DNA of 35,428 bases from an uncultured Gammaproteobacteria bacterium (GCA_964626355.1 CAZVCF010000002.1:7184-42611); one strand, 5' to 3'. Numbered from the stretch's first letter, positions 10,450 through 32,518 are shown. Numbers and translations: made by a program. The notes: a model not told the origin generated them from the letters alone.

Positions 10450-10488
10450 TTTTTGCATTTTACATTGTCATTTTGATTTTTGATTTTT
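10450..10488 (-). repeat. Family A arm, inverted partner of 10230..10296
   Basis: TTTTTGCATTTTACATTGTCATTTTGATTTTTGATTTTT. Its rc contains ATCAAAAATCAAAATGACAATG, identical to the left arm. Confidence 0.8.
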
Positions 10489-10583
10489 AAACTTTTAATT
10501 TGAACTTTATTACGCACTGCGGTCGGCCGGTGTTCTCTATAAAATAAATCTATCTTAAAAAATTTTATACTTAAAACTAAATC

Positions 10584-12192: not shown

Positions 12193-12756
12193 ATGCTTAC
12201 GATTGGAGAAAAAATACCTGATATGTCGTTCAAGGCATATCACAACGGACGAGCGAAAGACATCAAACTGTCTGATTACAAAGGAAAATGGCTTGTACTA
12301 ATTTTTTATCCGGCAGATTTTACGTTTATTTGTCCGACAGAGCTTGAAGAAGCGGCAGAACTTTATTCGGAATTTAAAAAATGTGGCGCGGAAATTATGA
12401 GCGTGAGCGCTGATACCGTGTTTGTCCATAAAGCATGGCACGACGCATCGCCGTCAATTAAAAAAATAAAATACCCGATGGCAGCGGATCCGACGGGAAA
12501 ATTATGCAGACTATTCGGAACCTATATAGAAGACGAGGGACTCTCTTTGCGCGGCAGTTTTATTATTGATCCGGATGGCGCGCTCAAAGCGTACGAACTA
12601 CACGATAATAGCATTGGCAGAAACACAAAAGAAATTTTGCGCAAACTCAAAGCGGCAAAATTTGTGCGCGAAAATGACGGCCTGGTATGTCCCGCGAATT
12701 GGGAACCGGGCAAAAAAACGCTCAAACCGGGACTGGATTTAGTCGGAAAAATATAA
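12193..12756 (+). CDS. Typical 2-Cys peroxiredoxin (AhpC/TSA family)
   Basis: 187-aa ORF. Peroxidatic-Cys motif FYPADFTFICPTELEE and resolving-Cys motif GLVCPANW. Confidence 0.9.
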   Translation: MLTIGEKIPDMSFKAYHNGRAKDIKLSDYKGKWLVLIFYPADFTFICPTELEEAAELYSEFKKCGAEIMSVSADTVFVHKAWHDASPSIKKIKYPMAADPTGKLCRLFGTYIEDEGLSLRGSFIIDPDGALKAYELHDNSIGRNTKEILRKLKAAKFVRENDGLVCPANWEPGKKTLKPGLDLVGKI

Positions 12757-12795
12757 ATAGGGAATTAGCTTTTAGGGAATTAGGAAATTAGAGAT
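12757..12795 (+). repeat. Family B spacer repeat abutting the peroxiredoxin stop codon
   Basis: ATAGGGAATTAGCTTTTAGGGAATTAGGAAATTAGAGAT begins at the nucleotide after TAA. Confidence 0.75.
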
Positions 12796-12825
12796 AAAAA
12801 AACAAAAAATTAATACGTTAGCTCG

Positions 12826-12869: not shown

Positions 12870-13451
12870 ATGTATCAACCAAAAAATTTTGATTCGCTCA
12901 TCGGTCTTGAAGGGTTTAGTGAAACACTTCTTAAAAATCACTTTACGCTCTATCAAGGCTATGTAACTAATACCAATAAAATCTCTGACACGCTTGCGCA
13001 ATACGCGCGCGATGGAAAAAATAATACGCCGGAATACGCTGAACTCAAACGGAGATTCGGATGGGAATTTAACGGTATGCGGCTCCATGAATTATATTTT
13101 GAAAATATGATAAGAGAGAAAACCACGCTCCCTGACGATTCTCAACTCATGAAAAAAATCGCTGATCAATTCGGATCATACGATAATTGGCTTAAAGATT
13201 TCAAATCAACAGGCGCGATGCGCGGCATTGGATGGACGATTCTCTACTGCGATAAAGTATCAAAACAATTATTCAATGTATGGATCAACGAACATGATGT
13301 CGGACATTTTGCTGGCGCTCTGCCGCTTTGTGTGCTTGATGTGTTTGAACACGCGTATATGCTTGATTATGGCTTAAAACGAGCTGATTATATTGAAACG
13401 TTTTGCAACGCAATCAACTGGAAAACGGTTGAAGAACGATGTATGGAATAG
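12870..13451 (+). CDS. Fe/Mn-family superoxide dismutase (divergent N-terminal region)
   Basis: 193-aa ORF with ..NGMRLHELYFENM.. and the C-terminal signature LDVFEHAYMLDY (canonical D-x-W-E-H-A-Y-Y). The N-terminal HHxKHH region is reduced to LLKNHFTLYQGYV. Confidence 0.8.
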   Translation: MYQPKNFDSLIGLEGFSETLLKNHFTLYQGYVTNTNKISDTLAQYARDGKNNTPEYAELKRRFGWEFNGMRLHELYFENMIREKTTLPDDSQLMKKIADQFGSYDNWLKDFKSTGAMRGIGWTILYCDKVSKQLFNVWINEHDVGHFAGALPLCVLDVFEHAYMLDYGLKRADYIETFCNAINWKTVEERCME

Positions 13452-13485
13452 GTTTTTAGGAAATTAGGGGATTAGGAAATTAGAA
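13452..13485 (+). repeat. Family B spacer repeat abutting the SOD stop codon
   Basis: GTTTTTAGGAAATTAGGGGATTAGGAAATTAGAA. Confidence 0.75.
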
Positions 13486-13502
13486 AAACCATAAAAAAAG
13501 AT

Positions 13503-13542
13503 AAAACCCTGTATTTTTGCTTTGCAAAAATACAGGGTTTTT
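13503..13542. terminator. Bidirectional hairpin terminator between convergent SOD and lipoprotein genes
   Basis: AAAACCCTGTATTTTTGC-TT-GCAAAAATACAGGGTTTT with A/T runs on both sides. Confidence 0.7.
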
Positions 13543-14416: not shown

Positions 14417-15280
14417 ATGACCATCGGCTATATTTTCGCCAATATTAAATTTTTTCCGGAAGATAAGATATTTTTTAATTTGGCGAAAGAAAAAAATATA
14501 AAAATCATTCTCTTCCCTTCCGCGCGCGTACTACCGGAAATCACTATAAAAAAACTCGCGAAAAAATGCGATGTAGTGATCAATAATTCAGCCGAGTCTG
14601 AAGCGTATGAAATCGCAAAAATTATTGAAATGGCGGGTATACCGGTCGTTGACCCGACTTCATCTCTTTATTATTTTGAAAATAAATGGCTTTTTTACAT
14701 ACTCTGCAAAAATAATGGCATTCCGACACCACACACGGTCCTGCTTCCAAAAATTCTACGCAACTGTTATCAGCCGATTAAAAGAATACTCCGCAAAAAC
14801 GGCGCGGTTATCATTAAAAATATTATGAGCGATAATGGCCAATTCGTTGATCGCGCAAAAACGCTTCCCGCCGCCATCGCGTGTATTAAAAAATTTCATA
14901 AAGGAGACCGCGCGCCGCTCATTGCGCAGGAATATATCAAACAATCGCACAAAGTATATCGCACGCTCGTAATCGGCAATAAGGTGGTTCAAGGCGCAAT
15001 CAAAAGTTCAAAACACTGGAAATGCACCGGACGATTTATCAAAGGCGATTGCAAAAAATTTTATGTCACGCCGAAACTCGCCCATCTTTCCGTTAAAATC
15101 GCGCGTCTGACTAAAATTCCGTGGTGTGGTATTGATTTTATGCGAAAAAATAACGAATGGATCGCGATTGAGGCGAACTCAAGCCCGGGAATGGATTTTA
15201 TAGAAAATGATATTCCAATCGTCTACAAATATCTGCTCAACTATCTCATCACGATGTACGAAAAGTGGTGGAAAATATAG
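14417..15280 (+). CDS. ATP-grasp family ligase (RimK-like)
   Basis: 287-aa ORF with ATP-grasp layout: ..GAVIIKNIMSDNGQFV.., ..PLIAQEYIKQSHKVYRTLVIGNKVV.., ..WCGIDFMRKNNEWIAIEANSSPGMDF. Confidence 0.7.
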   Translation: MTIGYIFANIKFFPEDKIFFNLAKEKNIKIILFPSARVLPEITIKKLAKKCDVVINNSAESEAYEIAKIIEMAGIPVVDPTSSLYYFENKWLFYILCKNNGIPTPHTVLLPKILRNCYQPIKRILRKNGAVIIKNIMSDNGQFVDRAKTLPAAIACIKKFHKGDRAPLIAQEYIKQSHKVYRTLVIGNKVVQGAIKSSKHWKCTGRFIKGDCKKFYVTPKLAHLSVKIARLTKIPWCGIDFMRKNNEWIAIEANSSPGMDFIENDIPIVYKYLLNYLITMYEKWWKI

Positions 15281-15322
15281 GATAGCTTCTTAGCTTATAG
15301 GGGATTAGGAAATTAGGAATAA
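15281..15322 (+). repeat. Family B repeat starting exactly after the ATP-grasp stop; inverted partner of 14371..14416
   Basis: GATAGCTTCTTAGCTTATAGGGGATTAGGAAATTAGGAATAA. Its rc begins TTATTCCTAA and ends CTATC, like the 5' copy. Confidence 0.8.
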
Positions 15323-15340
15323 AAAAAGCTTTATTAAAAA

Positions 15341-15972: not shown

Positions 15973-16120
15973 AGAACGATCTCCTTTCTTTCTTCTTTTT
16001 CCTTTTTTCTCTATTTCATTATCTGATACCGCGAGACATCATACGCTAATAATAACGCATACTCTTGTTCTTGTCAATAATAGTATAATGCCATAGAGTT
16101 CTTGACCACGGAATCGCTGT

Positions 16121-16170
16121 AATGAAAAATGTAAATATCAAAGTGAAAAATGGCAATCTAAAATGGTAAA
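16121..16170 (+). repeat. Family A arm at the 3' side of four-helix-bundle gene 1
   Basis: AATGAAAAATGTAAATATCAAAGTGAAAAATGGCAATCTAAAATGGTAAA. Confidence 0.8.
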
Positions 16171-16171
16171 A

Positions 16172-16543
16172 TTATTTTTTGCCTTTTAAAGTGAGAATGC
16201 TGGACGCAAGAACATTGGCGATCTCTATCAATTCTTTAAGCAACCATCCTAACTCAATACGATCACCCTTATTGGTATCTCGCAATAAGGTTATCCACAT
16301 CTTAGATTCGTTCGATGATTTCAAAGCATGAGTAAAAAAGTTGATAAAGTCCTTTTTGGAACTTGCCGAATTGGCTTCAATATAATTAGCAAGAATACTT
16401 GTGCCACTTCTTAAAAGCTGTTTCCCGATTACTACGCAAACTGAATCTTTTGGCAATGCATCAATAAATTTTATCAGCCGAAGGACCCAATAATAAAGTC
16501 TTTTCTTGAATTCATTTTTAAATTTTGCATTGTCATTTTGCAT
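16172..16543 (-). CDS. Four-helix-bundle protein (23S rRNA intervening-sequence protein family), copy 1
   Basis: 123-aa ORF MQNDNAKFKNEFKKR...GKQLLRSGTSILANYIEANSASSKKDF..., the pattern I recognise for this family. 98 of 123 residues are identical to the ORF at 22032..22403 (hand count). Confidence 0.85.
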   Translation of the reverse strand: MQNDNAKFKNEFKKRLYYWVLRLIKFIDALPKDSVCVVIGKQLLRSGTSILANYIEANSASSKKDFINFFTHALKSSNESKMWITLLRDTNKGDRIELGWLLKELIEIANVLASSILTLKGKK

Positions 16544-16565
16544 TTTGATTTTTACATTTTAATAT
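16521..16565 (-). repeat. Family A arm covering the start of four-helix-bundle gene 1
   Basis: rc reads AAAATGTAAAAATCAAAATGCAAAATGACAATGCAAAATT. Matches 16126..16164 at 33 of 39 ungapped positions (hand alignment). Confidence 0.8.
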
Positions 16566-16571
16566 ATATCC

Positions 16572-18461
16572 TTACCTCCCCAACACCGCCGTGTACGCTT
16601 CCGGCGGTATATCCATTTTTGCCATTTTCAATAATTCCTTTTTCCCTCTTCTTTGTCTTTCAAGCACTTTTTTCTTGCGTGTCACATCGCCGCCATATAA
16701 TTTCGCGGTTACGTCTTTGCGTATCGGCGGCAAATGTTCAGACGCTAAAATTTTTCCGCCTAATGCCACCTGAATTTTAACTTCAAACAGCTGGCGCGGC
16801 AATACCTCTTTTAATTTTTCCGCGATGCGGCGCGCCTGATACATACTTTCATCTTTATACACAAGTGCTGAAAGCGCTTCCACTTTCGCGCCAGCAACGA
16901 GAACCGTCAGTTTGATAATATCCGCTTCTCTGTATTCTAAAAATTCGTATCCAAGCGACGCGAATCCCGAACTGACACTTTTGAGTTTATCATAAAAATC
17001 AAAAAGCAATGTTGCCGCCGGCATCTCGCCTTGAATAAAAATCCTTCTCATTCCGACAACCGTATCTCCGGTAAGATAATCGTATTTTTGAAAACTCCCG
17101 CGATACGACGCAATCAATTCAAGCACTCTTCCGAGTGAATTTTCCGGCGTAATTATTTCGATTTTAAAATACGGTTCAAAAATATCTTCTAAAACGCTTA
17201 TTTCCGGCCATTCGCCGGCAGATCGCACGATTATTTTCTCCTTCGCGCCTTTTTTCCGCGCAACGACGGTCTCGTATGCGACTGATGGCGCGGTAATAAT
17301 CACTTCCAGATCATGTTCTCGTTTCAATCGTTCGCGAATAATATCCATATGCAAGATACCGAGAAAACCAACGCGAAATCCGAATCCGAACGCCGATGAA
17401 TTTTCAGGTTCAACATACAAGCTTGAATCGTTGAGTTTTAATTTATAAATCGCGGCTCGCAATTTCTGAATCTCATTCGCGCCTTTTGGATAAAATCCGG
17501 CAAACACCATTTGTTGCGGTTCGCGATAACCGGCCAATGGTTTGACATCCCTCTCTTTCGCGCGCGCAACCGTGTCTCCGATTCGCGCTTTTTCCAATTC
17601 CTTAAAACCAGTGACGATATATCCTATTTCACCGTCGATAAGCCGATCAGATTTTACCAGATTCGGTTTGAAATAACCGACTTCCAAAATCTTTGTCGTG
17701 ATACCATTACCTAAAAAAACGATCTCATCGCCTGCTTTCGCGGACCCGCCAAATAAACGAACATGCACTACTACGCCGCGATGTTCATCGAAAACAGCGT
17801 CAAAGATGAGCGCGCGAAGCACATCGCCTTCTTCAACACAAGGCGGCGGAACGCGCACAATGATTGTTCGCAAAAGATCTTCAACGCCTTCGCCTGTTTT
17901 CGCGGATACGGTGAGGATAGCGTCTTCTTTGCATTGCAATAAACCGACTATCTCTTTTCTAGTCGCCTCAACTCGCGCCGATGGAAGATCAATTTTATTG
18001 ATCACCGGAATAATCGCCAATTTTTCTTTTTGCGCCAAAAACAAATTCGTGACTGTTTGCGCTTGAATTCCTTGCGTTGCGTCAACCAACAAAACAGCCC
18101 CTTCAACCGCGGCTAATGAACGAGATACTTCGTAATTAAAATCAATATGCCCCGGCGTGTCTATCAGGTTGAGGACATATTCTGAATTTGATAACAATTG
18201 ACCATTAACATTTGACATTTGACTGTCAATAGTCAATTGTCTGGCGTCAATTGTCCAGTCCGTATGATTTAGTCTCCAAATCATACGGACTGGCTGCATT
18301 TTAATAGTAATGCCTCGTTCACGCTCTAAGTCCATCGCATCAAGATATTGCGCGCGCATTTTGCGCGATTCAACCGTATGCGTTATTTCGAGCATCCGAT
18401 CCGCAAGCGTTGACTTGCCATGATCAATATGCGCGATGATGCAAAAGTTGCGAAGCAACAT
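16572..18461 (-). CDS. lepA: Translation elongation factor 4 (LepA) with an extra segment in the G domain
   Basis: 629-aa ORF: NFCIIAHIDHGKSTLADR, DTPGHIDF, NKIDLP, C-terminal ...GGDVTRKKKVLERQRRGKKELLK... typical of LepA. Confidence 0.95.
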   Translation of the reverse strand: MLLRNFCIIAHIDHGKSTLADRMLEITHTVESRKMRAQYLDAMDLERERGITIKMQPVRMIWRLNHTDWTIDARQLTIDSQMSNVNGQLLSNSEYVLNLIDTPGHIDFNYEVSRSLAAVEGAVLLVDATQGIQAQTVTNLFLAQKEKLAIIPVINKIDLPSARVEATRKEIVGLLQCKEDAILTVSAKTGEGVEDLLRTIIVRVPPPCVEEGDVLRALIFDAVFDEHRGVVVHVRLFGGSAKAGDEIVFLGNGITTKILEVGYFKPNLVKSDRLIDGEIGYIVTGFKELEKARIGDTVARAKERDVKPLAGYREPQQMVFAGFYPKGANEIQKLRAAIYKLKLNDSSLYVEPENSSAFGFGFRVGFLGILHMDIIRERLKREHDLEVIITAPSVAYETVVARKKGAKEKIIVRSAGEWPEISVLEDIFEPYFKIEIITPENSLGRVLELIASYRGSFQKYDYLTGDTVVGMRRIFIQGEMPAATLLFDFYDKLKSVSSGFASLGYEFLEYREADIIKLTVLVAGAKVEALSALVYKDESMYQARRIAEKLKEVLPRQLFEVKIQVALGGKILASEHLPPIRKDVTAKLYGGDVTRKKKVLERQRRGKKELLKMAKMDIPPEAYTAVLGR

Positions 18462-18467
18462 AAAAAG

Positions 18468-18516
18468 TTAAAAATGCAAAAATCAAAAATCAAAATGACA
18501 ATCTAAAATGCAAAAT
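18468..18516 (+). repeat. Family A solo arm just upstream of the lepA start
   Basis: TTAAAAATGCAAAAATCAAAAATCAAAATGACAATCTAAAATGCAAAAT. Confidence 0.75.
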
Positions 18517-18521
18517 TATTT

Positions 18522-18553: not shown

Positions 18554-18617
18554 TCTTGTCTCTTATATCTTTCAACGTTTTTAAATTTTGTTTTGCCTTT
18601 TTGATTTTTAATTTTGA

Positions 18618-19640
18618 TCATTTGAATTTGTTTCGAATTTCGATATTCGAATTTCGAATTTTTTTAATAATATTATATGTTCGCCTAAAATTCAAATTTA
18701 AAAATGTCATTGCGTACAAAATAATTACTTTACATTTATTTAATGAATGAAAATAGCGCATACTTTTTCTAAAATACGCGCGCGCTTGCGCGCGCTTCCC
18801 CATCACCAATGTCGCACCGCCTCGCCAATAGAGTTCATCGCCAACGCGATGCTGCACATTTCGTTCTAACTCTCCTCTTGAGAGAGTAATCATTTTTTTT
18901 ACCTCCTCTGAAAGCGTATCATAAAATCGTATCGCGTATTCCGCGCATCGTTTTTCAACGTCAACAACATTTTTTGTGGTCACTTGTCCTTCCCAAAATC
19001 GCCAATAGCCGCACAACGCAGGCACGAAATAAAATTCGCCTCTTGTTGCAAGTTCAAGCCATGTCGGATAATCAACCAACGGTAATCCAACGCTCTTAAA
19101 TCCTCCTATGTGATCAAGCGCGCTCTTTCGCACCATAACTGTTTGGGAAGGGAGCGTGTTATATTTTAATAAGATATTGAGAATCGCTCCGATGGGCGAA
19201 TTATTCCCCCATTTATCCAAATCCTTGTTCTTCTTCGGAAAAATATCTAAAAGCTCCCCTTTTTCATCAACCGCGCCTGTTTGCCCGTACACGACAATTA
19301 TTTTCTCGTTTTCAAAAAATGGAATCTGTTTCTCCAATTTATCCGAAGGCCAAAAATCATCGCCTTCTAAAATGGCGATGATATCGCCTTTTGCCAATTT
19401 CAACGCTTTATTAAAATTATCCGGAATTTTTTCAACGCCTTGATTTTGCTGATAGATATACGTAATTCGCGCATCGCTATATGATTTCACTATTTCTCCT
19501 GTTTTGTCAGTTGACCCGTCATCAATAATAATCATTTCCCAATTCGCGTAGGTTTGACCGCGTACGCTTTCAACGCACTGCCGAATAAATCGTTCGTGAT
19601 TATAAGTGAGTGTTAATATGGATACAAGAGAACTTGACAT
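18618..19640 (-). CDS. Family 2 glycosyltransferase
   Basis: 340-aa ORF: VSILTLTYNHERFIRQCVESVRGQTYANWEMIIIDDGSTD and ..ILEGDDFW.. (DxD-like). The last ~15 codons are encoded by a CGAAATT-type repeat. TGA stop. Confidence 0.85.
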   Translation of the reverse strand: MSSSLVSILTLTYNHERFIRQCVESVRGQTYANWEMIIIDDGSTDKTGEIVKSYSDARITYIYQQNQGVEKIPDNFNKALKLAKGDIIAILEGDDFWPSDKLEKQIPFFENEKIIVVYGQTGAVDEKGELLDIFPKKNKDLDKWGNNSPIGAILNILLKYNTLPSQTVMVRKSALDHIGGFKSVGLPLVDYPTWLELATRGEFYFVPALCGYWRFWEGQVTTKNVVDVEKRCAEYAIRFYDTLSEEVKKMITLSRGELERNVQHRVGDELYWRGGATLVMGKRAQARAYFRKSMRYFHSLNKCKVIILYAMTFLNLNFRRTYNIIKKIRNSNIEIRNKFK

Positions 19641-19714: not shown

Positions 19715-20314
19715 ATGTTTAAAAGAATAGCTAAAAATATTCGCGCGGCCATCGATCGGTATCGCGCGAAAAAAAATAATAAACAGCGCGACGCATTCCT
19801 TAGATTATATTGTTTGCACGCCCTTTGCAATGAAAAAATAAAAAAAGAGCAAATCAATAAAGAGAGTATCTATCGATTGTATGACCAAATCCGAGCGTTG
19901 CCGCAAATTGAAAAAATACGCGTTCAATACAAAAAAAACAAATTTATTGTCTATACGCAGCCGCTCTTTATTGATTATGACGATAAACGATATGGTATTG
20001 GCTCGTTTAAAATCTCAATCGCTTTTCCTAAAATGGAGATACGAATACAGAATCGCACAAACAAACGATATTGCGAGAAAAAATATGATTTTGGCATAGA
20101 TCGTTATCATCACCCTCATATAAAGAATGATATAATCTGTTTCGGGAATATAGGTCCTACGATATATTCTCTACTCAGGCACTACGAATTTCACGCGGTT
20201 TTACAAATAATTGTCTTGTTTTTGGAGAGTTATTGCGATGACATGCCTTACTATAATATTAAAAACTGGGACACGGTACCGAAAAACGAACAATTAAGAA
20301 TGGAAAACAAATAA
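19715..20314 (+). CDS. Hypothetical protein with UBC/E2-like motif layout (tentative)
   Basis: 199-aa ORF, ATG start, followed by a strong terminator. See finding for GSFKISIAFP ... YHHPHIKNDIICFGN ... VLQIIVLFLESYCDDMP. Confidence 0.7.
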   Translation: MFKRIAKNIRAAIDRYRAKKNNKQRDAFLRLYCLHALCNEKIKKEQINKESIYRLYDQIRALPQIEKIRVQYKKNKFIVYTQPLFIDYDDKRYGIGSFKISIAFPKMEIRIQNRTNKRYCEKKYDFGIDRYHHPHIKNDIICFGNIGPTIYSLLRHYEFHAVLQIIVLFLESYCDDMPYYNIKNWDTVPKNEQLRMENK

Positions 20315-20354
20315 TGAATAATTAAAATCTAAAGTATAAAATCAAAAATCAATA

Positions 20355-20396
20355 GCCCTGATTTCGCTCGAGCGAAATCAGGGCTTATTTTTTTTC
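20355..20396 (+). terminator. Rho-independent terminator of the 19715..20314 gene
   Basis: GCCCTGATTTCGCTC|GAGCGAAATCAGGGC, a perfect 15-bp stem, followed by TTATTTTTTTT. Confidence 0.8.
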
Positions 20397-20404: not shown

Positions 20405-20863
20405 TATTAAATAATGAAATACCTTATTCTGAACCATTTGCGAAAAAACGAAAAAACGTAGCGTTTTAACCAGAAACGCAACTGTTTGACGAGCGGAGCG
20501 AGGAGTTTTGCATTTCGTATCAGAGCTCAGAATTCAAACCAGGGTCAGATTGAGAAGCTAAAAAATGAGATGATTTCGAGGCGCGACTACGAAAGTGTGC
20601 CCCCAGCGGCACAGTGAGGAGGAGCAACGAAGAAAGCATCTCATTTTTTAGCTTCCCTACTGGGCGGGCGAATTCGGGTTATCTTCTGCGTTGCTCGTCG
20701 CTCACGTACCACACAGGGTACGTATCGCTTCTCACGCCTTGAAGATAACCCGAATTCGCTCCGCTCAATTGACTCTGGTTTGGATTCTGAGCTCCTAAAC
20801 GCGTTGCGTTTTTGAAGTTTTTGGAGCGTTCCGGTTCAGAATAAGGTATTTCGTTATTTAATA
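20405..20863. other. 459-bp GC-richer nested-palindrome element (candidate large structured ncRNA or foldback/MITE-like element)
   Basis: Four nested inverted-repeat pairs: A 20405..20435/20833..20863, B 20523..20554/20764..20794, C 20554..20572/20637..20655, D 20669..20686/20741..20758. Details in findings. Confidence 0.6.
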
Positions 20864-20868
20864 CCCCC

Positions 20869-21975
20869 CTATCGCTTCCCCACAATCTTCTGAATAAATG
20901 CTGTTATTTTTTCTTTGAATCGTTCCTTTGAAAATTTGAGCGCATGCGCGCGAATTTCAGCCGGATCATACTGTTCCCAATCGAACTTTCTCACTGCGTC
21001 CGCGAGCGCGCGCGGAGTCTGTTCATTAAAAAATTCTCCTGTTTTCCCTTCAATGATTGTCTCGATTGCGCCACCGGCGCGATACGCAATCACCGGACGT
21101 CCGACTGCCATCGCTTCAATAGCCGTAATGCCTAAATCTTCTATTTGCGGATAAATAAGCGCGCGGCAATGCCGCAGATATTCCCATTTTTTTTCGTCAG
21201 GAACAAACCCCAAAAATTCAACATCATAATCCGCCATCATACGCAAACGCGCGTCGCTTCCGACGCCGATAATCTTAAGCGGCAATCCGAGAATATTGAA
21301 CGCCTGTATTGCGATATCAATTTTCTTATATGGCTCAAGACGCGATATAATCAAATAATAATCCTTTATTTCTTCTTTATTCGCCGGCTCTATCGACGGA
21401 ATATCCGTTGGCGGATGAATAACTTCAGCGTTGCGCTGATAATATTTTTCAATTTTATCGCGCACGAAACGGGAGTTTGTCGCGAAATGCGTTGGTTTCT
21501 GCGCCGCGTTAAAATCCCATCGACGCAACCACGGAATAAAAGGATACGCGCCATAACGCGCAATTGATTTAGTATTTTTGATATAGTCTTTTGTCTCTTC
21601 CCACAGCCATCGGGTTGGCGTGTGAATATACGAAAGATGCGGTATATTCCCCGGCATTTTACTGCCTTTGACAAACGCAGCGGTGTCGGAAATCACGATA
21701 TCAAACTCACCGTCAATCAATTTGCGGTTTAATGATTCTGCGGCATACGGCATCAAGGGCAAATAATATTGATGATTTTTTTCCGCAAACGGCATTTTCT
21801 GCACGAACGATGAAATGATTTGATCTTTGTAGCGATTAAAAAACTGTTTCACGATTTCGTCGCGTTTCACTAAAACAAAAATCGTGGCGTCAGGCCACAA
21901 CTCAAGAAACGCTTCCAACACCTTTTCCGCTCCGCCGTACTGCGTGAGAAAATCATGAACAAGAGCAACGCGCAT
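20869..21975 (-). CDS. Family 4 (GT-B, RfaG-like) glycosyltransferase
   Basis: 368-aa ORF: MRVALVHDFLTQYGGAEKVLEAF N-terminus and C-terminal ..EDLGITAIEAMAVGRPVIAYRAGGAIETI.. (E-x7-E region). Confidence 0.85.
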   Translation of the reverse strand: MRVALVHDFLTQYGGAEKVLEAFLELWPDATIFVLVKRDEIVKQFFNRYKDQIISSFVQKMPFAEKNHQYYLPLMPYAAESLNRKLIDGEFDIVISDTAAFVKGSKMPGNIPHLSYIHTPTRWLWEETKDYIKNTKSIARYGAYPFIPWLRRWDFNAAQKPTHFATNSRFVRDKIEKYYQRNAEVIHPPTDIPSIEPANKEEIKDYYLIISRLEPYKKIDIAIQAFNILGLPLKIIGVGSDARLRMMADYDVEFLGFVPDEKKWEYLRHCRALIYPQIEDLGITAIEAMAVGRPVIAYRAGGAIETIIEGKTGEFFNEQTPRALADAVRKFDWEQYDPAEIRAHALKFSKERFKEKITAFIQKIVGKR

Positions 21976-21976
21976 A

Positions 21977-22030
21977 GAAAATGTAAAATGTAAATCTCAA
22001 AATGTAAAATGACAAAGAAAAAATGACAAA
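21977..22030 (+). repeat. Family A arm at the 3' side of four-helix-bundle gene 2
   Basis: GAAAATGTAAAATGTAAATCTCAAAATGTAAAATGACAAAGAAAAAATGACAAA. Starts 2 nt from the GT4 start codon. Confidence 0.8.
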
Positions 22031-22031: not shown

Positions 22032-22403
22032 TTATCTTTTGCCTTTTAGAGTAAGTATACTTGAAGCAATGACATTCGCTATTTCAATCACTTCCTGCAA
22101 TAACCAACGCAATTCGTCTTGATTGCCCTTTTTCAGTTCTTTTAAAAGAGTAATCCAAACTTTTGATTCATTTGCTGATTTGAGCGCATGCGTAAAAAAA
22201 TTCGTGAAATCTTTTCGTGAACTTGCGGAATTTGCTTCAATATAATTTGCCAAAATACTTGTACCGCTTCGCAATAATTGTTTACCCATTACCTCACTTA
22301 CCGAATCCTTAGGCAACGCATCAATATATTTAATCAATCGCACAACGAAAGAATATACCCTTTTTTTGAATTCATCTTTAAATTTTGCATTGTCATTTTG
22401 CAT
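22032..22403 (-). CDS. Four-helix-bundle protein (23S rRNA intervening-sequence protein family), copy 2
   Basis: 123-aa ORF MQNDNAKFKDEFKKR...GKQLLRSGTSILANYIEANSASSRKDF.... Paralogue of 16172..16543. Confidence 0.85.
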   Translation of the reverse strand: MQNDNAKFKDEFKKRVYSFVVRLIKYIDALPKDSVSEVMGKQLLRSGTSILANYIEANSASSRKDFTNFFTHALKSANESKVWITLLKELKKGNQDELRWLLQEVIEIANVIASSILTLKGKR

Positions 22404-22425
22404 TTTGATTTTTGCATTTTACATT
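22380..22425 (-). repeat. Family A arm covering the start of four-helix-bundle gene 2
   Basis: rc of 22383..22425 matches 21980..22022 at 37 of 43 ungapped positions (hand alignment). Confidence 0.8.
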
Positions 22426-22480
22426 AACGTTTTAAAAAAATCTATCAACTATAACACATCTGTTTATATTCTGCACTATA

Positions 22481-23368: not shown

Positions 23369-23427
23369 AAGTAGAAAATGGAATAGGGAATATATAAATT
23401 TTCAATTTTTGATTTCTAATTTTTATT

Positions 23428-23478
23428 AAATTTTGCATTTTGCATTGTCATTTTGATTTTTGCATTTTGATTTTTGAA
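23428..23478 (-). repeat. Family A solo arm filling the secD-secF spacer
   Basis: AAATTTTGCATTTTGCATTGTCATTTTGATTTTTGCATTTTGATTTTTGAA. Ends 2 nt from the secD stop. Confidence 0.8.
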
Positions 23479-23479
23479 T

Positions 23480-25093
23480 TTACTTGACGTACATCTTCTG
23501 CAAAAATACCCTTGTCACCGTGATCGCGGTAAACATACTGACGATGACACCGACTCCGAGCGTTAATCCGAAACCGCGCAAAAGACTGCTTCCAAAATAA
23601 TACAAAATCGCGCAGGTAATTAAGGTGGTCACATTACTGTCGCGAATCGCGGACCACGCGCGGTCAAATCCGAACTCAAGCGCCATCACGCGATCGCTTC
23701 CTTTGTTCATTTCTTCCTTCATTCGTTCAAAAATCAACACATTCGCGTCAACTGCCATGCCAAGTGAAATAATAAATCCAGCGATACCGGCAAGCGTCAT
23801 TGTCACACCAACAATTTTGAATAAGGCGATACTTAACACCAAATATATTATCAAACTAATTGACGCGACAATGCCTTTTGTACGATAAAACAAAATCATA
23901 AAAAGTATAATTGCCGCGATGCCAATGATGCCGGCTTTTATACTTTTATCAACCGCTTCTTTTCCCAATTGCGCGCCGATGGTATTCTGGCTGATTAATT
24001 TAATCGGAATCGGCAACGCGCCGGCGCTAAGCCGCTGAGCCAATAATTTCGCCTCTTGCACCGAAAAATCGCCGGTGATGACCGCTCGTCCGGAAGTAAT
24101 CGGTTCCTGCACACGCGGAACGCTAATCGCCGCGGAGTCCAAAAATATCGCTACCGGCTTATTCACATTTCGCGTGGTAATTTCACCGAACAATTTTGAT
24201 CCTTCTTCGTTAAACTCAAGCGAAACTTCCGGCTGTCCGGTACTTGGATTAAACGAAACGCCCGCGATCTTCAAATGCTTCCCGGAAAGTTGTGTATTTT
24301 TCCATGGATTCGCGCTTGCTTCCAATTTTTTTGTTTTGATTAAAACGTGCGACGCATTATATTCCTTTTGGTCTCCTTCTCCACGCTCGTCATTTTTCCT
24401 TACAATATGATAGCCGAACGGCGATTGAATCGGGTCTTTTGACATCTCGCCTTTTTGAAGCCGTATCACTTCATCCTCAAACGGCTGAACCATCATTCCT
24501 TTTCTAAACCATCCAAGTTCTCCGCTTTTCGATCCAGAGCCTGGATCTTCGCTATACTGTTTCGCCGCGACCTCAAAAGTTGTCTTTTTTTGTTCAATCT
24601 CATTGAGAATTCTATAGATACGTGCTTGCGCATTTTTATTATAGTCGTCTATTTCTTTCTGTTGATCCGATGACACCGTTGCTTTCTCGTCTTCTTCCTT
24701 GAATTCCAACACCGGCGTTTCGCCGATCATTTTTTTTGCGTCTTCTATATTTTTAATGCCGGGCAATTCAACGATGATACGCCATTCGTCCGCAGACTTA
24801 TTCGTGCGCACAATCGGCTCCGCAACACCAAAATAATTGATTCGCCGTTCGATTACATCGCGCGTTCCTTCAACCGCCTTTTCTCGTTCCGAAACAGGAA
24901 CATTCGCCGTGTCGGTTTGATAGACTAAATGCGATCCTCCTTGCAGATCGATTCCCAACGACAGATGACGATCGGTAAACCATTTTGCCATCGGCACCCA
25001 TTCAGGAACTTTCGGCAATGTAACAAGCGCCGCGGCTATCGCGACGACAATAATCAGCCAAAATAGATTATCAACCTTGTGTTTATTAAGCAT
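23480..25093 (-). CDS. secD: Protein translocase subunit SecD carrying an inserted parvulin-type PPIase domain
   Basis: 537-aa ORF: ..LGIDLQGGSHLVY.., ..AIFLDSAAISVPRVQEPITSGRAVITGDFSVQEAKLLAQRLSAGALP.., TM core ..LGMAVDANVLIFERMKEE... The insert spans about aa 145-256. Confidence 0.9.
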   Translation of the reverse strand: MLNKHKVDNLFWLIIVVAIAAALVTLPKVPEWVPMAKWFTDRHLSLGIDLQGGSHLVYQTDTANVPVSEREKAVEGTRDVIERRINYFGVAEPIVRTNKSADEWRIIVELPGIKNIEDAKKMIGETPVLEFKEEDEKATVSSDQQKEIDDYNKNAQARIYRILNEIEQKKTTFEVAAKQYSEDPGSGSKSGELGWFRKGMMVQPFEDEVIRLQKGEMSKDPIQSPFGYHIVRKNDERGEGDQKEYNASHVLIKTKKLEASANPWKNTQLSGKHLKIAGVSFNPSTGQPEVSLEFNEEGSKLFGEITTRNVNKPVAIFLDSAAISVPRVQEPITSGRAVITGDFSVQEAKLLAQRLSAGALPIPIKLISQNTIGAQLGKEAVDKSIKAGIIGIAAIILFMILFYRTKGIVASISLIIYLVLSIALFKIVGVTMTLAGIAGFIISLGMAVDANVLIFERMKEEMNKGSDRVMALEFGFDRAWSAIRDSNVTTLITCAILYYFGSSLLRGFGLTLGVGVIVSMFTAITVTRVFLQKMYVK

Positions 25094-25138
25094 AAGGATA
25101 GGAAATTAGCTTTTAGGGGATTAGAGAATTAGGAATAA
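25094..25138 (+). repeat. Family B repeat abutting the secD start codon
   Basis: AAGGATAGGAAATTAGCTTTTAGGGGATTAGAGAATTAGGAATAA. On the gene strand it gives AAGCTAATTTCCTATCC-TT-ATG, the same 17-mer found before the ATP-grasp ATG. Confidence 0.8.
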
Positions 25139-25206
25139 AAATGCGATTTTCATAGTACCAAAAATAAAAATCTCGTCAATCAAAAAATTCATCCTCGCAA
25201 TAGAAA

Positions 25207-25252: not shown

Positions 25253-27349
25253 TTATTCAATTTCTCCGCCAGAGGAATAAATTTCTTTGAAAATGAATAG
25301 TTTTTGAATCTCATTCGTGCCTTCAAATAACTTATTGATGCGCGCGTCGCGATACAGACGTTCAATCGGATATTCTTCCATATATCCGTATCCGCCAAAT
25401 ACCTGCAATGCCGTATCAATGACTTCAGAACCAAGTTCGGAACACTGCAATTTCACAATAGCCGCTTCAAGCCGCACGTCTTTTCCTTGATCGAATTTCG
25501 CCGCCGCCTGATACACCGCCTGCTCCATCATATAAATCTTCGCGCGCATTTCCGCGAAATAGAATTGAATTGCTTCAAACTCAATAAGCGTCTTATCAAA
25601 TTGTTGCCGTTGGGAAGCGTACGCGTACGCGAGCTCAAACGCCTCTTTTGCCGCGCCAAGACATCCTGCCGCAAGCGATAATCGCCCGCCGTTGAGCGTC
25701 TGCATAAAAATCTTAAATCCTTGTCCGACTCCGCCAAGCAAAGCGTCTGCTGAAACTTCCACATTATCAAATACTAATCCCGCGGTGCGCGACGCTCTAA
25801 TACCCATTTTTTTCTCTATTTTGCCAACGGAAAAACCTTTCGAACCTTTATCAACGATAAATGCCGCGAGACCTTTCTGCCCTAAAAATTTATCTGTTTG
25901 CGCAATTACGACTACAAAGTCAGCGATATCGCCATTCGTGATAAATTGCTTGCGTCCGTTTAGAATCCATTTGTCGTCTTTGAATACCGCGGTTGTCTGA
26001 ACATTCGCCGCGTCTGATCCAGCGCCCGGTTCCGTCAACGCAAACGCGCCAATCATTTTTCCTTCAAGCCCTGCGCGAAGATACTTTTGTTTTTGCGCTT
26101 CGGTGCCGCCGATATAAATCGCGCCGCACGCCAAACCTGTATGCGCGCCAACGAGCGCTGCTGTCGAGCCATGCGCGCGCGACAGTTCTTCCATCACAAT
26201 GCAATATCCTGTTTTTCCAAAATCTGAACCGCCGTATTTTTCTGGAAACGCCGTTCCAAAAAATCCGAGTTCCGCCATTTTCTCAAATAACGCACGCGGA
26301 ATTTGCTCTTCGCTTTCCATTTTTTCAACATTCGGCCGTATTTCATTTTTGACAAAATCACGGGCTGTTTCTTTTAAAAGTTTATATTCTTCCGAAAGAT
26401 CCGATGGAACTATTGCCTGTTGTGGCGCAGATGGAGCCGCAACTGTTTCTTTCTTTTCTTCCGGCAACTGAATTTTCAAAAATTTCGCAAGACCTTTTTT
26501 CGCGCTTTCTTTCATCACTAATTCGGCGAATAATTGCTGTTCAAGAGACAATGCCTCATCGGCAGAAAAGAACAAACCATCAACGACCGCGCGAAGAATT
26601 ACTTGAACTGCATCTGGAGATTTTGAAGCAGATAAAGTCTTAAAATTCGCATCTTCAGAAATCATTTCGATAATTTTCTGCTTATCCGCTTCTGTACGTT
26701 CGGGACGCGCCAGTTGGGACGATAAATCGTCAAATTCTTTATCCCCTTCCATAATTATTTTTGCGATTTCTTTTGTTTTTGCGATTAAATCTTTTTGCGG
26801 AACAACAAAATCAACCAAACGTATCGCGTGCGCATCGCGTGCGGAAATAATATTTCCGGCAACAAGCATATAAACCGCCTTTTTTACATCCGTGACCAAA
26901 CGCGGAAGTCGCTGCGTTCCGCCCATCCCTGGCATAATGCCTAAATTAATTTCCGGCTGACCGAATTGCGCTTGATCGGATGCAACGCGGATACCGCATG
27001 CCATCGCGATTTCGTTGCCGCCGCCAAGGCAATAGCCGTCAATTGCCGCGATAACTGGCTTTGTTAAATCTTCAATTGTATTCGCGACACTGTTCGCTTT
27101 TGCCAATAATTCTTTTGCTTTTTCTACATCATTACTTTGCGCTATCTGCCAAATTTCAGTTACATCTGCGCCTGTTGAAAATAACCCTTTTCCGGTAAGA
27201 ATAACTACTTCAACTGCGTCATTTTTTTCCATTTCCTTAAACGCGGATTGCAATTCCATCATAACTGGCGTTGACAGGTTGTTGCGCGGAGGATTCTGAA
27301 TAACGATAATCCCCATTTGATCGCTTACTTTTGTCTCTATGTATTTCAT
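25253..27349 (-). CDS. Fusion protein: N-terminal enoyl-CoA hydratase (crotonase) plus C-terminal acyl-CoA dehydrogenase
   Basis: 698-aa ORF. Crotonase part ..GKGLFSTGADVTEI.., ..AAIDGYCLGGGNEIAMACGIRVAS..FGQPEINLGIMPGMGGTQRLPRLV. ACAD part ..GAFALTEPGAGSDAANV.., ..FITNGDIADFVVV.., ..QVFGGYGYMEEYPIERLYRDARINKLFEGTNEIQ. SD-like AAGGGAGA before the ATG. Confidence 0.85.
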   Translation of the reverse strand: MKYIETKVSDQMGIIVIQNPPRNNLSTPVMMELQSAFKEMEKNDAVEVVILTGKGLFSTGADVTEIWQIAQSNDVEKAKELLAKANSVANTIEDLTKPVIAAIDGYCLGGGNEIAMACGIRVASDQAQFGQPEINLGIMPGMGGTQRLPRLVTDVKKAVYMLVAGNIISARDAHAIRLVDFVVPQKDLIAKTKEIAKIIMEGDKEFDDLSSQLARPERTEADKQKIIEMISEDANFKTLSASKSPDAVQVILRAVVDGLFFSADEALSLEQQLFAELVMKESAKKGLAKFLKIQLPEEKKETVAAPSAPQQAIVPSDLSEEYKLLKETARDFVKNEIRPNVEKMESEEQIPRALFEKMAELGFFGTAFPEKYGGSDFGKTGYCIVMEELSRAHGSTAALVGAHTGLACGAIYIGGTEAQKQKYLRAGLEGKMIGAFALTEPGAGSDAANVQTTAVFKDDKWILNGRKQFITNGDIADFVVVIAQTDKFLGQKGLAAFIVDKGSKGFSVGKIEKKMGIRASRTAGLVFDNVEVSADALLGGVGQGFKIFMQTLNGGRLSLAAGCLGAAKEAFELAYAYASQRQQFDKTLIEFEAIQFYFAEMRAKIYMMEQAVYQAAAKFDQGKDVRLEAAIVKLQCSELGSEVIDTALQVFGGYGYMEEYPIERLYRDARINKLFEGTNEIQKLFIFKEIYSSGGEIE

Positions 27350-27586: not shown

Positions 27587-28795
27587 TTACCACTCCGCAT
27601 CAAAAATCTTTTTGTTGTTTGTCGCGTATTCTTCAAGAAGTTTTGATGGTTTGAAACGAATGCCGTATTTTTGCTCGTACTGTTTCAATTCAACGAAAAT
27701 CGCCACAAGTCCTTCGCTTTCCGCCCAATGCAACGGTCCGCCTAAAACCATTGGAAACCCGATGCCATATTTGCATCCTGTTTCAATATCCTCTGCTGAA
27801 GCAATCCCTTCTTCAAGGCACAAAAACGCCTCATTCACAAAACCATACAGCATTCGCTTAAAAGCTTCTTGAAGATCGAGAGCAACTCTGTTCTGAAAAT
27901 TCTGACTCACGATCTCCGCACTATCTTCGAATCCTTTTGTTTCGTCGTATACATAAAATCCCGCGCCCGCTTTTTGTCCGTATCGTTTTTTTTCAACGAG
28001 TATTTGCATCAACTGAGCCGGCTTCACGCGTTCGCCGTATCCTTCATATAAAATTTTTGCGACTTCAAGACCAATATCAATCCCTAAATAATCTAAGAGT
28101 ATGAATGGGCCCATCGGCCAACCGAAATGTTGCGCTATAGAATCAATTTCTTTAATCGTTAACGTTGTTTCTGAAAGAAGAAGCGTTGCTTCGTTAAGAT
28201 AGGGTAATAATAATCTGTTTGCCAAAAATCCCGGGCATTCTTTTATCCGTATCGGAATTTTTCCAAGAGAATTTTTCGTGAAATCTTCAAGCGCGTCAAC
28301 TGTTTCAATTGATGTTGTTTTTCCGGAAATAAGTTCGATGAGCGGCATCGTCACCGGCGGATTGAAAAAATGCACGCCGATAATTTTATCTTTTCTTTGT
28401 TCCTGAACCACAGTTGCCATTTCCGTGATCGAAAGTGATGAAGTATTTGTCGCGAAAATAACCGACAGAGGCACGAGTGCATCAAGTTCGGCAAAAACTT
28501 TTTTCTTTATATCCATTCGTTCAAACACTGCTTCAATTATCAAATCAACATCTTTCAGATCGTTATAATCCGCGGTTGTTGCAATAAGCGCTTTTGCCAT
28601 TTCACCTTTATCGGACATTATCTTTCCTCGTTCAACAGCGCTGCCGATTCTTTTAAACATTTTTTCCTGCGCTTTGCTCGCCAATTCGGTGTTCATTTCT
28701 TTAACAACTACCTGTATTCCCTGTTGCGCAATCAGCATCGCGATACCTTGTCCCATCGCTCCGCCGCCGACTACGCCAACTTTATAAATTGCCAT
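27587..28795 (-). CDS. 3-hydroxyacyl-CoA dehydrogenase (long form, extra C-terminal domain)
   Basis: 402-aa ORF: Rossmann motif VGVVGGGAMGQGIAMLIAQQG, ..NTSSLSITEMA.., ..GVHFFNPP.., ..PGFLANRLL... SD AGGAG 8 nt before the ATG. Confidence 0.85.
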   Translation of the reverse strand: MAIYKVGVVGGGAMGQGIAMLIAQQGIQVVVKEMNTELASKAQEKMFKRIGSAVERGKIMSDKGEMAKALIATTADYNDLKDVDLIIEAVFERMDIKKKVFAELDALVPLSVIFATNTSSLSITEMATVVQEQRKDKIIGVHFFNPPVTMPLIELISGKTTSIETVDALEDFTKNSLGKIPIRIKECPGFLANRLLLPYLNEATLLLSETTLTIKEIDSIAQHFGWPMGPFILLDYLGIDIGLEVAKILYEGYGERVKPAQLMQILVEKKRYGQKAGAGFYVYDETKGFEDSAEIVSQNFQNRVALDLQEAFKRMLYGFVNEAFLCLEEGIASAEDIETGCKYGIGFPMVLGGPLHWAESEGLVAIFVELKQYEQKYGIRFKPSKLLEEYATNNKKIFDAEW

Positions 28796-28986: not shown

Positions 28987-30264
28987 TTACGCTCTTTCAA
29001 TAATTAACGCTCCACCCTGTCCGCCGCCGACGCACATGGTGATCATCGAATACCGTTTCTGAAACTCTTGCAAAATATGAATTGCTTTAACGGTTAAATA
29101 TGATCCTGTTGCGCCAACGGGATGACCAAGCGCGATCGCGCCGCCCCATACATTCAATTTTTCATCCGGAATACCGAGCGCGCGTTGATCCGCTAACGCC
29201 TGCGCCGCAAACGCTTCGTTTAATTCGAAAAAGTCTATCTCTTCTATTTTTAATCCTGCTTTTTCCAGAGCTTTTGGAACTGCATATATCGGCCCTTCCG
29301 CCATATACGCGGGATCACATGCCGCGTACCCGTACGATACAATATATGCTTCCGGTTTCAAATCAAGAATAAGCGCCGCTTCTTCTGTCATAATCAGCAT
29401 TGCGGAAGCGCCGTCCGATATTGGACATGAATTCGTCGGAGTGATCGTTCCTTTATTCGAAACTTTCTTCTCAACAATTATTTTCCCATTTTCATAGCGA
29501 GATTTTGGATTATGCGCTTGATAAATATCATCATCCATAAAAATCGCCGGCGTAAGTGACGCCATCTGTTTATTTAATCCGGGATTAACGCATTCGTCTT
29601 CAGCAAATATTTTTTCTCCGGAAAGCACTTTTTCTCCGATAACAGTATTATTCTGAATCACGATTGGAATAATCTGCGATTTAAATTTTCCCTCTCTCTT
29701 CGCGCGAAACGCTTTTTGGTGCGACTTCACCGCAAAATCGTCCTGATCTTCTCTGCTGATGCTATATTTCTTAACGACATTTTCGACCGTGCGTCCCATA
29801 ATTTGTCCGAGCAACGGATCGGTCAATCCTTCCCACAAACCATCGGTAAAATAAGAATGTTGCATCTTTAATCCAAATCGCGCACCTTTCACTAAATACG
29901 GAATCTGCGACATATTTTCCGTTCCGCCGACTAAAAATATTTTTCCGTCGCCAGCTTTATATGTTTGGCACGCCGAAGTAATTGCTTCAATTCCGGACGC
30001 GCAATTTCTCTGCACCGTTTTCGCGGGAATATCTTGAGGAACTCCTGCTAAAAGCGCGGATAACCTTGCCACATTCGCCGCGTCAGACGGCTGACACACG
30101 TTTCCAGCAACAACTTCGCTAATCAATTTCGGATCTATTTTCGTTTTTTTAAGCACGTCCTCAAAACATATCGCCAATAATTGCGCCGCTGAAACATCTT
30201 TTAAACTCCCGCCAAAACTCCCAATCGGCGTCCGCACGCCTCCAATAATCACTAATCTATTCAT
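28987..30264 (-). CDS. Acetyl-CoA C-acyltransferase (thiolase)
   Basis: MNRLVIIGGVRTPIGSFGGSL, active-site ..QRNCASGIEAI.., ..NEAFAAQ.., ..GGAIALGHPVGATG.., ..CVGGGQGGALIIERA. The track ORF starts at TTG 30297. ATG 30264 is preceded by AAAGGAA and matches normal thiolase N-termini. Confidence 0.9.
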   Translation of the reverse strand: MNRLVIIGGVRTPIGSFGGSLKDVSAAQLLAICFEDVLKKTKIDPKLISEVVAGNVCQPSDAANVARLSALLAGVPQDIPAKTVQRNCASGIEAITSACQTYKAGDGKIFLVGGTENMSQIPYLVKGARFGLKMQHSYFTDGLWEGLTDPLLGQIMGRTVENVVKKYSISREDQDDFAVKSHQKAFRAKREGKFKSQIIPIVIQNNTVIGEKVLSGEKIFAEDECVNPGLNKQMASLTPAIFMDDDIYQAHNPKSRYENGKIIVEKKVSNKGTITPTNSCPISDGASAMLIMTEEAALILDLKPEAYIVSYGYAACDPAYMAEGPIYAVPKALEKAGLKIEEIDFFELNEAFAAQALADQRALGIPDEKLNVWGGAIALGHPVGATGSYLTVKAIHILQEFQKRYSMITMCVGGGQGGALIIERA

Positions 30265-30357
30265 TGTGTTATTTCCTTTATATTTATTATTTTTCAAGAA
30301 CTACCATTAGGGTACTACTAATTTCTCTAATGTCAATCATCGAAAAAACTCAAAAAA

Positions 30358-32500: not shown

Positions 32501-32518
32501 AAATGAATAACTATAAAT

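Follow-up and report, generated by a model that had tools for sequence, protein, structure and literature searches.

The element described here lies within a stretch of DNA of 35,428 nucleotides (hereafter the window), in the spacer between two convergent genes, one encoding a GT4 glycosyltransferase and the other a protein of 199 amino acids. The window is chromosomal DNA of a member of the Patescibacteria; it encodes SecD, SecF, LepA, GatB, alanine racemase and an aminoacyl-tRNA synthetase, and the best matches of both GT4 and LepA are patescibacterial. The closest non-self match has 52% identity for GT4 and 58% for LepA, the flanking proteins are singletons (found on one contig), and the source is a singleton lineage with none of the relatives found being close enough for comparison at the DNA level. 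The features of the region are as follows.

19715..20314, plus strand: convergent gene for the 199-aa, probably E2/UBC-like, protein, in the same variable slot as the element
20354..20395, no strand assigned: bidirectional intrinsic terminator, with a 14-bp stem and a T-run on each strand
20405..20863, no strand assigned: the whole foldback element, 459 bp, non-coding and dyad-symmetric, GC 0.449
20405..20435, no strand assigned: arm A, left terminal inverted repeat, 31 nt, 97%, first letters TA
20436..20515, no strand assigned: left spacer, from arm A to arm B
20491..20501, no strand assigned: GAGCGGAGCGA, perfect complement of 20756-20766, in a pairing that crosses helix B
20516..20554, no strand assigned: arm B, left
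20554..20655, minus strand: hairpin module C, with a 24-bp stem (23/24), a 54-nt loop and an inner hairpin (20596-20601 / 20608-20613)
20656..20667, no strand assigned: GC-rich linker of 12 nt, at the dyad centre between modules C and D
20668..20759, plus strand: hairpin module D, with a perfect 19-bp stem, a 54-nt loop and an inner hairpin (20704-20710 / 20717-20723)
20764..20801, no strand assigned: arm B', right
20802..20832, no strand assigned: right spacer, from arm B' to arm A'
20833..20863, no strand assigned: arm A', right terminal inverted repeat, last letters TA, with the GT4 stop codon 5 nt away
20869..21975, minus strand: GT4 glycosyltransferase gene, with the element in its 3' untranslated region

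An intrinsic terminator is predicted at the 20354-20385 hairpin on the plus and minus strands alike; it is common to the 199-aa gene (plus strand) and, across the element, to the GT4 gene (minus strand). The GT4 stop codon (20869-20871) is 5 nt from the right arm, and there is no strong terminator either before the element or inside it. Since this left-hand hairpin acts in both directions, the terminator that serves GT4 itself is on the far side of the element, which is thus within the GT4 3' UTR; whatever its origin, the element would be read on the minus strand as a segment of the GT4 mRNA. It lies 18 nt from the terminator hairpin, and the convergent spacer without it would be about 95 nt long with the terminator at its centre.

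In the relatives the gene order is SecA-SecD-SecF-GT4, followed 24-45 bp on by either MurJ or a CCA-adding enzyme in the same orientation, and MurJ abuts LepA. The order in the window is SecD-SecF, an IVP gene, GT4, the element, the terminator, the 199-aa gene on the plus strand, GT2 and LepA, and the element, the neighbouring 199-aa gene and GT2 occupy a variable slot in a conserved SecDF-GT4-(MurJ)-LepA block. No remnants of MurJ, of a 169-aa hypothetical protein or of the CCA-adding enzyme were found in the element or the slot by tblastn, and a pseudogene remnant of the slot's usual genes is ruled out by the lack of any such match within the element.

The 199-aa protein has no match in Pfam, PHROG, NCBIfam or PADLOC and no homologue by word-indexed search. 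An exhaustive HMMER scan recovered 684 representatives containing its C-terminal domain of about 140 residues, with the invariant residues Y-HPH-x6-C-x-G. One member of this family has a weak match to Pfam UQ_con, and the best PDB matches of the family profile are E2 enzymes (UbcH7, E = 0.015), with the HPH falling on HPN and the Cys on the catalytic Cys. The protein is thus most likely E2/UBC-like, and the family motif and structure matches rule out its gene as a transposase or nuclease.

Anatomy and composition of the element

The element contains nested palindromes at three or more levels, together with small local ones, and its dyad symmetry runs across the whole of it, unpaired loops included; when the left half is aligned to the right half in reverse complement, 156 positions match, 36 mismatch and 75 columns are gaps. 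The outermost arms (A, 20405-20435 / 20833-20863) are complementary at 30 of 31 positions (97%) and stand 397 nt apart. Arm B can be paired without gaps over 32 nt (20516-20547 / 20770-20801, 84%), or with a single gap at 29 of 32 positions (20523-20554 / 20764-20794). Arm C spans 24 nt at 96% (20554-20577 / 20632-20655), with one A·G mismatch and a 54-nt loop, and arm D is perfect at all 19 positions (20668-20686 / 20741-20759), also with a 54-nt loop. The left spacer (20436..20515) exceeds the right one by about 49 nt, pairs with it only partially and has small local palindromes of its own. All four pairs of arms had been proposed in an initial sequence-only reading of this DNA, and arms A (at the same coordinates), B (as the one-gap pairing) and D (as a perfect stem) are as it described them; arm C is also present but is longer than the 19 bp first given to it, with a loop of 54 rather than 64 nt.

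A further complementarity that crosses helix B had been recognized in the same reading, and is found to extend over 11 perfectly matched nucleotides, between GAGCGGAGCGA at 20491-20501 and its complement at 20756-20766. This represents either an alternative pairing or the relic of an earlier duplication layer, and we note that an 11-nt perfect inverted repeat also arises in 2.6% of shuffles of the 459-nt element. At the outer junctions (20404/20405 and 20863/20864) the left flank ends in ...CATCTTTA and the right flank opens with CCCCCC..., so that the ends of the element read CATCTT/TA...TA/CCCCCC in context, with no longer flanking direct repeat beyond the TA. The TA at both ends of arm A is thus real, and the initial caution about it is justified: the terminal TA (and TTAA) is self-complementary and indistinguishable from the arms of which it is part, and hence is uninformative on target-site duplication.

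The GC content of the element is 0.449 and that of its core 0.502, against 0.319 for the other spacers of the window pooled and 0.422 for its coding sequence, confirming the early impression of a block richer in GC than the other spacers. The internal open reading frames are all of 68 codons or fewer, and the 68-aa product has no Pfam match. A type I toxin or other small peptide was considered and rejected; the predicted products are not convincingly hydrophobic, there is no ribosome-binding site outside the paired stems, and the reading frames are not conserved between modules beyond nucleotide similarity. A scan of the entire window against Rfam 15 gave no hits at the gathering score and matched no known family; at E≤10 the sole match inside the element is to Ocean-VII, at 11.1 bits versus a gathering score of 53.5. 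ARAGORN finds no tRNA or tmRNA, and the absence of a known RNA signature and of a credible reading frame, both remarked on from the start, is borne out. There is no sigma-70-like promoter site at or in the element, with the proviso that promoters of this phylum may differ, and the internal terminator-like sites are weak ones only (20493-20511 on the plus strand and 20479-20461 on the minus strand). A replication origin or terminus at the element is ruled out by the cumulative GC skew, which has no extremum here.

Compensated pairing in modules C and D

Module C on the minus strand aligns with module D on the plus strand over 114 columns with no internal gaps, although the two are overall only about 50% identical. 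This alignment establishes that the C and D loops are inverted paralogues, as had been suggested, and the loop motif CGTTGCTC is conserved on opposite strands of the two modules. The modules have 31 base pairs in common, all of which are formed in each copy (100% pairing), and in 13 of these both partners have changed, namely in 11 of the 22 closing-stem pairs and in two of the six pairs of the inner hairpin, the stem already described as compensated. None of 500 column shuffles reaches 13 pairs changed on both sides, and slid controls give between zero and two. The closing stems had been characterized as each being fully paired and unrelated in sequence. The first part of this description holds (D at 19/19; C at 23/24, with the one A·G mismatch) but the second holds only in part, since the closing-stem pairs are in register, with 11 of 22 identical in C and D and the other 11 changed on both sides. 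Neither stem contains a single G·U pair.

Sequence identity differs greatly among segments of the element, from 30 of 31 sites in arms A to 30 of 54 (56%) in the module loops and 16 of 38 at closing-stem sites; the difference between arms A and the module loops is significant (Fisher p = 4e-5). The closing stems are no less diverged than the loops but remain fully paired; some process keeps pairing as such. Loops that are unpaired and nonetheless reverse-complementary to each other are the mark of an inverted duplication at the DNA level rather than of selection on an RNA, and with two paralogues in one molecule covariation is indistinguishable from hairpin-templated correction.

Relative to dinucleotide shuffles the predicted fold is very stable on both strands (z = -17.6 plus, -15.5 minus), as any palindrome would be, with an advantage of 24 kcal/mol for the plus strand over the minus. 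The sequence-only reading had noted, as weak evidence, that the three substitutions in arms A and B are compatible with G·U pairing if the plus strand is the RNA. This is literally true, in that all four transitions in the aligned long-range arms (half-versus-half alignment) yield G·U on the plus strand, but as evidence it is not significant; the minimum-energy folds contain 11 G·U pairs on the plus strand and eight on the minus (p = 0.65), or eight versus two when long-range pairs alone are counted. The strand bias is therefore not significant and any strand preference is weak.

Search for copies and homologues

The element is single-copy in the window, where blastn with a word size of 7 returns self matches only, and a covariance model of the module finds modules C and D plus generic terminator hairpins and nothing else. 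A wider search for copies used as its query the 19-nt arm core, which is identical at both ends; with exact matching, which diverged ends would escape, it gave three hits in 185,579 species-representative genomes, five in 241 million metagenome records and none in viral contigs. All eight are chance matches: each has one arm alone and lies in unrelated sequence, in several cases within a coding region. The exact core also revealed no IS-like locus with matching ends in the genome, metagenome or viral collections. Patterns for the loop motif and for arm B had no hits in viral contigs, and low-stringency blastn found no match among phage and plasmid records.

The loci of the relatives were similarly unproductive, with no homologue by blastn or nhmmer (188 kb), no module homologue by covariance model (135 kb) and no comparable nested palindrome. 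Among the window ORFs scanned there is no transposase, recombinase, HUH transposase, RAYT-like protein or integrase. Of the two alternatives in the initial description, an undescribed structured RNA or a foldback element, the foldback half is supported by anatomy and setting, and the RNA half is neither supported nor excluded.

Origin of the element

We tentatively favour, at a little below an even chance, the interpretation that the element is a foldback insertion of the non-autonomous, MITE-like kind, or what is left of one after decay. This is favoured by its anatomy and setting, namely the dyad symmetry that includes the loops, the TA-ended 31-bp repeats, the lack of a credible reading frame or promoter-like site, and the position in a variable slot. 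[quoted passage not shown] TA termini are typical of the bacterial members, such as the IS630-mobilised RUP (PMC2229807; PMC10969869). At 459 bp and with no transposase gene the element falls within either size limit, and its terminal repeats, 31 nt long and situated at the very ends of the palindrome, compare with a requirement of at least 10-15 bp. No partner IS or transposase was found in the window or in the collections searched. Bacterial MITEs are typically AT-rich (PMC10969869), a property that is not strictly defining, and the element is not (GC of 0.449 versus 0.319). The absence of G·U pairs from stems C and D fits Watson-Crick pairing at the DNA level, and the site, after a stop codon and before a terminator, is a place where an insertion is tolerated.

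If the element is a MITE-like insertion, it would have inserted at a TA downstream of the GT4 stop codon and ahead of the bidirectional terminator that serves both GT4 and the 199-aa gene, presumably by transposition in trans with a transposase encoded elsewhere. As part of the GT4 3' UTR on the minus strand it may now form a long rod, paired from 5' to 3' end and with a forked tip, that could be open to RNase III cutting or could alter mRNA stability. Such effects on mRNA processing and stability have been described for the Correia (RNase III) and ERIC elements (PMC2229807). Stems C and D may have been kept paired by quasipalindrome template-switch correction in replication, by selection for hairpins, or by both; template switching is known to turn imperfect inverted repeats into perfect ones during replication (PMC7202029), and by copying a mutation in one arm to the other would mimic compensatory evolution. 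The near-identity of the distant arms A could reflect either constraint on transposase-binding ends or a younger outer layer, and it is the former that we propose as the reason why these arms are still 97% complementary across 397 nt as the interior decays.

Several observations do not sit easily with a MITE-like origin. There is one copy in 35 kb, no partner IS, and a GC content above that of the surroundings, and transposase binding leaves the pairing of the internal stems B, C and D unexplained.

The TA-ended MITEs, including Correia/NEMIS of Neisseria, RUP of S. pneumoniae (mobilised by IS630-Spn1) and ERIC, resemble the element in being non-coding and below 500 bp, in having terminal inverted repeats of 24-31 bp with 5'-TA-3' at both ends, and in being intergenic, downstream of a gene and co-transcribed with it as an end-paired long stem-loop (PMC2229807; PMC10969869). 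They differ in their length of about 100-200 bp, their AT-rich composition and their tens to hundreds of copies; the element is 459 bp with a GC content above its surroundings, is single-copy where searched, lacks an identifiable partner IS, and at its core forks into a double hairpin whose stems are compensated. YPAL/RU-2 of Yersinia is not AT-rich and has internal inverted repeats (PMC2229807), as the element does; YPAL also inserts beside regions of dyad symmetry (PMC2229807), and the element is 18 nt from a terminator hairpin. The RNA of CIR (Caulobacter/Brucella) has two hairpin arms and a linker (PMC2229807), in the manner of modules C and D with their 12-nt linker. Both YPAL and CIR are multi-copy, about 170 bp or less, and without sequence similarity to the element; the element has both the TA termini that YPAL lacks and the terminal inverted repeats missing from CIR.

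Palindromic hairpin units in alternating orientation make up larger palindromes in REP/REPIN/BIME sequences, which are biased to the spacers of convergent genes and affect mRNA stability (PMC3184786; PMC2817692). A REP unit measures about 20-40 nt, its stem is conserved and its loop tiny, and such units occur in hundreds of copies with RAYT transposases; the element, by contrast, has units of 92-102 nt in which the loops are conserved and the stems vary, is single-copy, and has no RAYT in the window. Quasipalindromes under template-switch correction (PMC7202029) acquire 'compensatory' changes without selection, as may have happened in stems C and D, although this is a mutational process rather than a class of element, shown experimentally for short palindromes, and it leaves the origin of the element and the preservation of arms 397 nt apart unexplained. 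We class the element, whose sequence is new, with a known kind, the palindromic MITE-like intergenic elements; it is unusual for that kind in its size, its GC content and its compensated double-hairpin core.

The same palindrome could also have been made in place, as a non-mobile and functionless product of inverted duplication by template switching in the GT4 3' spacer; this we consider doubtful, with an appreciable chance of being correct, and we give the same weight to its corollary that further short-range switches keep the close arms perfect as unpaired parts decay. Such a history would account for the inclusion of the loops in the dyad symmetry, for the three or more nested levels plus the small local palindromes, for stems C and D (arms 54 nt apart) being perfect despite 16/38 identity versus 30/54 in the loops, and for the extra copy of GAGCGGAGCGA in the left spacer, which resembles the leftover of an earlier duplication layer; it agrees with the single copy wherever searched, and the mechanism is a documented one (PMC7202029). 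Arms A are harder to accommodate, since 97% complementarity at 397 nt versus 56% identity in the loops (p = 4e-5) is unlike uniform neutral decay and, by our reasoning, short-range template switching should be inefficient across that distance. In addition, blastn finds no sequence in the window or the flanks that resembles the element as a possible source, and a GC content of 0.45-0.50 is foreign to this genome's spacers (0.32). Selection on a structured RNA, whether a cis-acting minus-strand element in the 3' UTR of the GT4 transcript or a separate ncRNA from the plus strand, strikes us as rather unlikely. The 13 of 31 shared pairs changed on both sides with pairing at 100%, unmatched in 500 shuffles, speak for it, as do the retention of all four helices with divergence of the unpaired segments, the very stable fold and the GC content far above that of other spacers in an AT-rich genome; the excess of long-range G·U pairs (8 versus 2) and the advantage of 24 kcal/mol lean to the plus strand, the 11-nt crossing complement could make a pseudoknot, and sRNAs derived from MITEs are known (PMC10969869). 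All the same, the covariation between two paralogues could equally come from hairpin-templated correction, the mutually reverse-complementary loops point to DNA duplication, the G·U bias is not significant (p = 0.65), and the modules are oppositely oriented so that only one would be in its 'sense' in any transcript. An RNA gene would have no sigma-70-like promoter of its own and only weak internal terminator-like sites, and a plus-strand RNA would read through a strong terminator. There is no Rfam family, no homologue in the relatives (135 kb by covariance model; 188 kb by blastn and nhmmer), and near-perfect Watson-Crick helices of 19-31 bp would, we reason, be out of the ordinary in an RNA of long standing and a target for RNase III.

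The element might instead act as DNA, through a hairpin or cruciform that serves as a substrate for recombination or ssDNA transposition or as a dyad protein-binding site, with the conserved 54-nt loops recognized by a putative enzyme and the stems free to vary; we think both this role and this mode of recognition very unlikely. The two-fold symmetry, with the loop motif CGTTGCTC on opposite strands, and the purely Watson-Crick stems, in which sequence varies and pairing does not, are in keeping with such a site, and integron attC sites and REP/REPIN hairpins are structure-specific sites with the same logic. However, the window encodes no recombinase, HUH transposase or integrase, the 199-aa protein next to the element resembles an E2 enzyme and not a nuclease, the GC skew does not turn here, the element is single-copy, and loops of 54 nt are far larger than those of known nick sites. 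Viewed more broadly, the prospect that this is a functional folded nucleic acid of a deep, unsampled lineage of the Patescibacteria, be it a new RNA of about 460 nt or a new DNA element recognized by its hairpins, seems to us unlikely; were such a selected structure present, the 13 compensated pairs and the four kept helices would reflect selection and not templated correction. Finally, the source is a singleton metagenome-assembled contig, and a chimeric foldback generated by assembly or amplification has to be considered, but it is improbable in the extreme. Foldback artefacts are, as a rule, exact inverted copies that mostly sit at contig ends, whereas here the arms are imperfect in a patterned way (97%, approximately 90%, 96% and 100%), the halves differ by indels of tens of nucleotides, the modules are only about 50% identical, and the block is internal to the contig, between intact genes and a terminator.

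The element also illustrates a methodological trap: its 13 'compensatory' pairs would pass a covariation test as strong evidence for an RNA, and template switching in replication can give the same compensated pattern without any RNA function. It would become a candidate for a new class of RNA or DNA structure only if covarying homologues appear in other genomes. A literature search for MITEs in the Patescibacteria, which have reduced genomes, found nothing relevant. Should the element be a MITE-like insertion, as we tentatively favour, it is a commonplace genome parasite, and its position in the 3' UTR of the mRNA for a cell-envelope glycosyltransferase could affect the stability of that transcript.

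Dispersed and short-period repeats in the spacers

Most of the intergenic spacers of the window carry copies of an AT-rich repeat family with a unit of approximately 55-65 nt and a core of the form ...AAAATCAAAATGACAATGCAAAAT..., at 9260-9337, 10209-10296, 10440-10503, 16098-16178, 16498-16575, 18443-18520, 18568-18641, 21957-22029, 22361-22431, 23420-23485, 32492-32566, 32580-32649 and 34010-34201. The copies are present in both orientations, and comparison of repeats across the window shows complementarity between copies of up to 96%. The repeat could be a promoter or terminator module, or else a small dispersed repeat. Short TTAGGGAATTAGGAAATTAG-type arrays that repeat every 8 nt occur at about ten sites, mostly directly outside genes (among them 1583-1683, 12754-12821, 13456-13505, 15279-15338, 25095-25154 and 34008-34049), and comparable TTAGAAATTAG arrays are seen in a relative (locus L016, 6866-6988).

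Two genes of the window encode 23S-rRNA-intervening-sequence proteins (PF05635); they are 71% identical to each other over 300 nt, and each has inverted AT-rich repeat copies on both sides:

16172-16543, PF05635 gene, flanked by repeats 16126-16177 / 16509-16560
22032-22403, PF05635 gene, flanked by repeats 21957-22029 / 22365-22428

The second of these sits between SecF and the GT4 glycosyltransferase gene, and the gap between SecF and GT4 in relatives is only 70-85 bp. This gene looks like a cassette-type insertion.

Likeness of stem D to the adjacent terminator

The arms of the bidirectional terminator that adjoins the 459-bp nested palindrome, GCGAAATCAGGG / CCCTGATTTCGC, are similar to the outer part of stem D, the closing stem of one of the hairpin modules within the palindrome (GCGAATTCGGG / CCCGAATTCGC). 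The likeness is between terminator positions 20357-20382 and stem D positions 20668-20678 / 20749-20761, and corresponds to repeat families D4 and I11, each at 85% over 13 nt. It may be due to chance, or it may be a trace of how the palindrome, or the target of the palindrome, was built.

Protein-coding genes of the window

Neither the 1174-aa ORF at 5308-8832 (-) nor the 459-aa ORF at 10584-11963 (+) has a Pfam match; the latter contains internal direct DNA repeats, spaced roughly 69-123 nt apart, that code for Gly-rich sequence (repeat families D12 and D16). An oxidative-stress defence pair, in which a peroxiredoxin gene adjoins that of a superoxide dismutase, and a beta-oxidation-like set of three genes are also present on this Patescibacteria contig:

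12193-12756 (+), AhpC-type peroxiredoxin
12870-13451 (+), Fe/Mn superoxide dismutase
25253-27349 (-), 698-aa enoyl-CoA hydratase and acyl-CoA dehydrogenase fusion
27587-28795 (-), 3-hydroxyacyl-CoA dehydrogenase
28987-30297 (-), thiolase

The beta-oxidation-like set is unexpected in Patescibacteria, whose metabolism is usually described as reduced.

The 199-aa neighbour of the palindrome (19715-20314, +) at first appeared to be an orphan, yet it is a member of a family that counts 684 representatives and whose invariant residues form an HPH...C...G motif. When the family profile is compared with solved structures, the best matches are to E2 ubiquitin-conjugating enzymes (E = 0.015), and the motif aligns with the E2 HPN and catalytic Cys. 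This Patescibacteria gene probably encodes a stand-alone E2/UBC-like protein.
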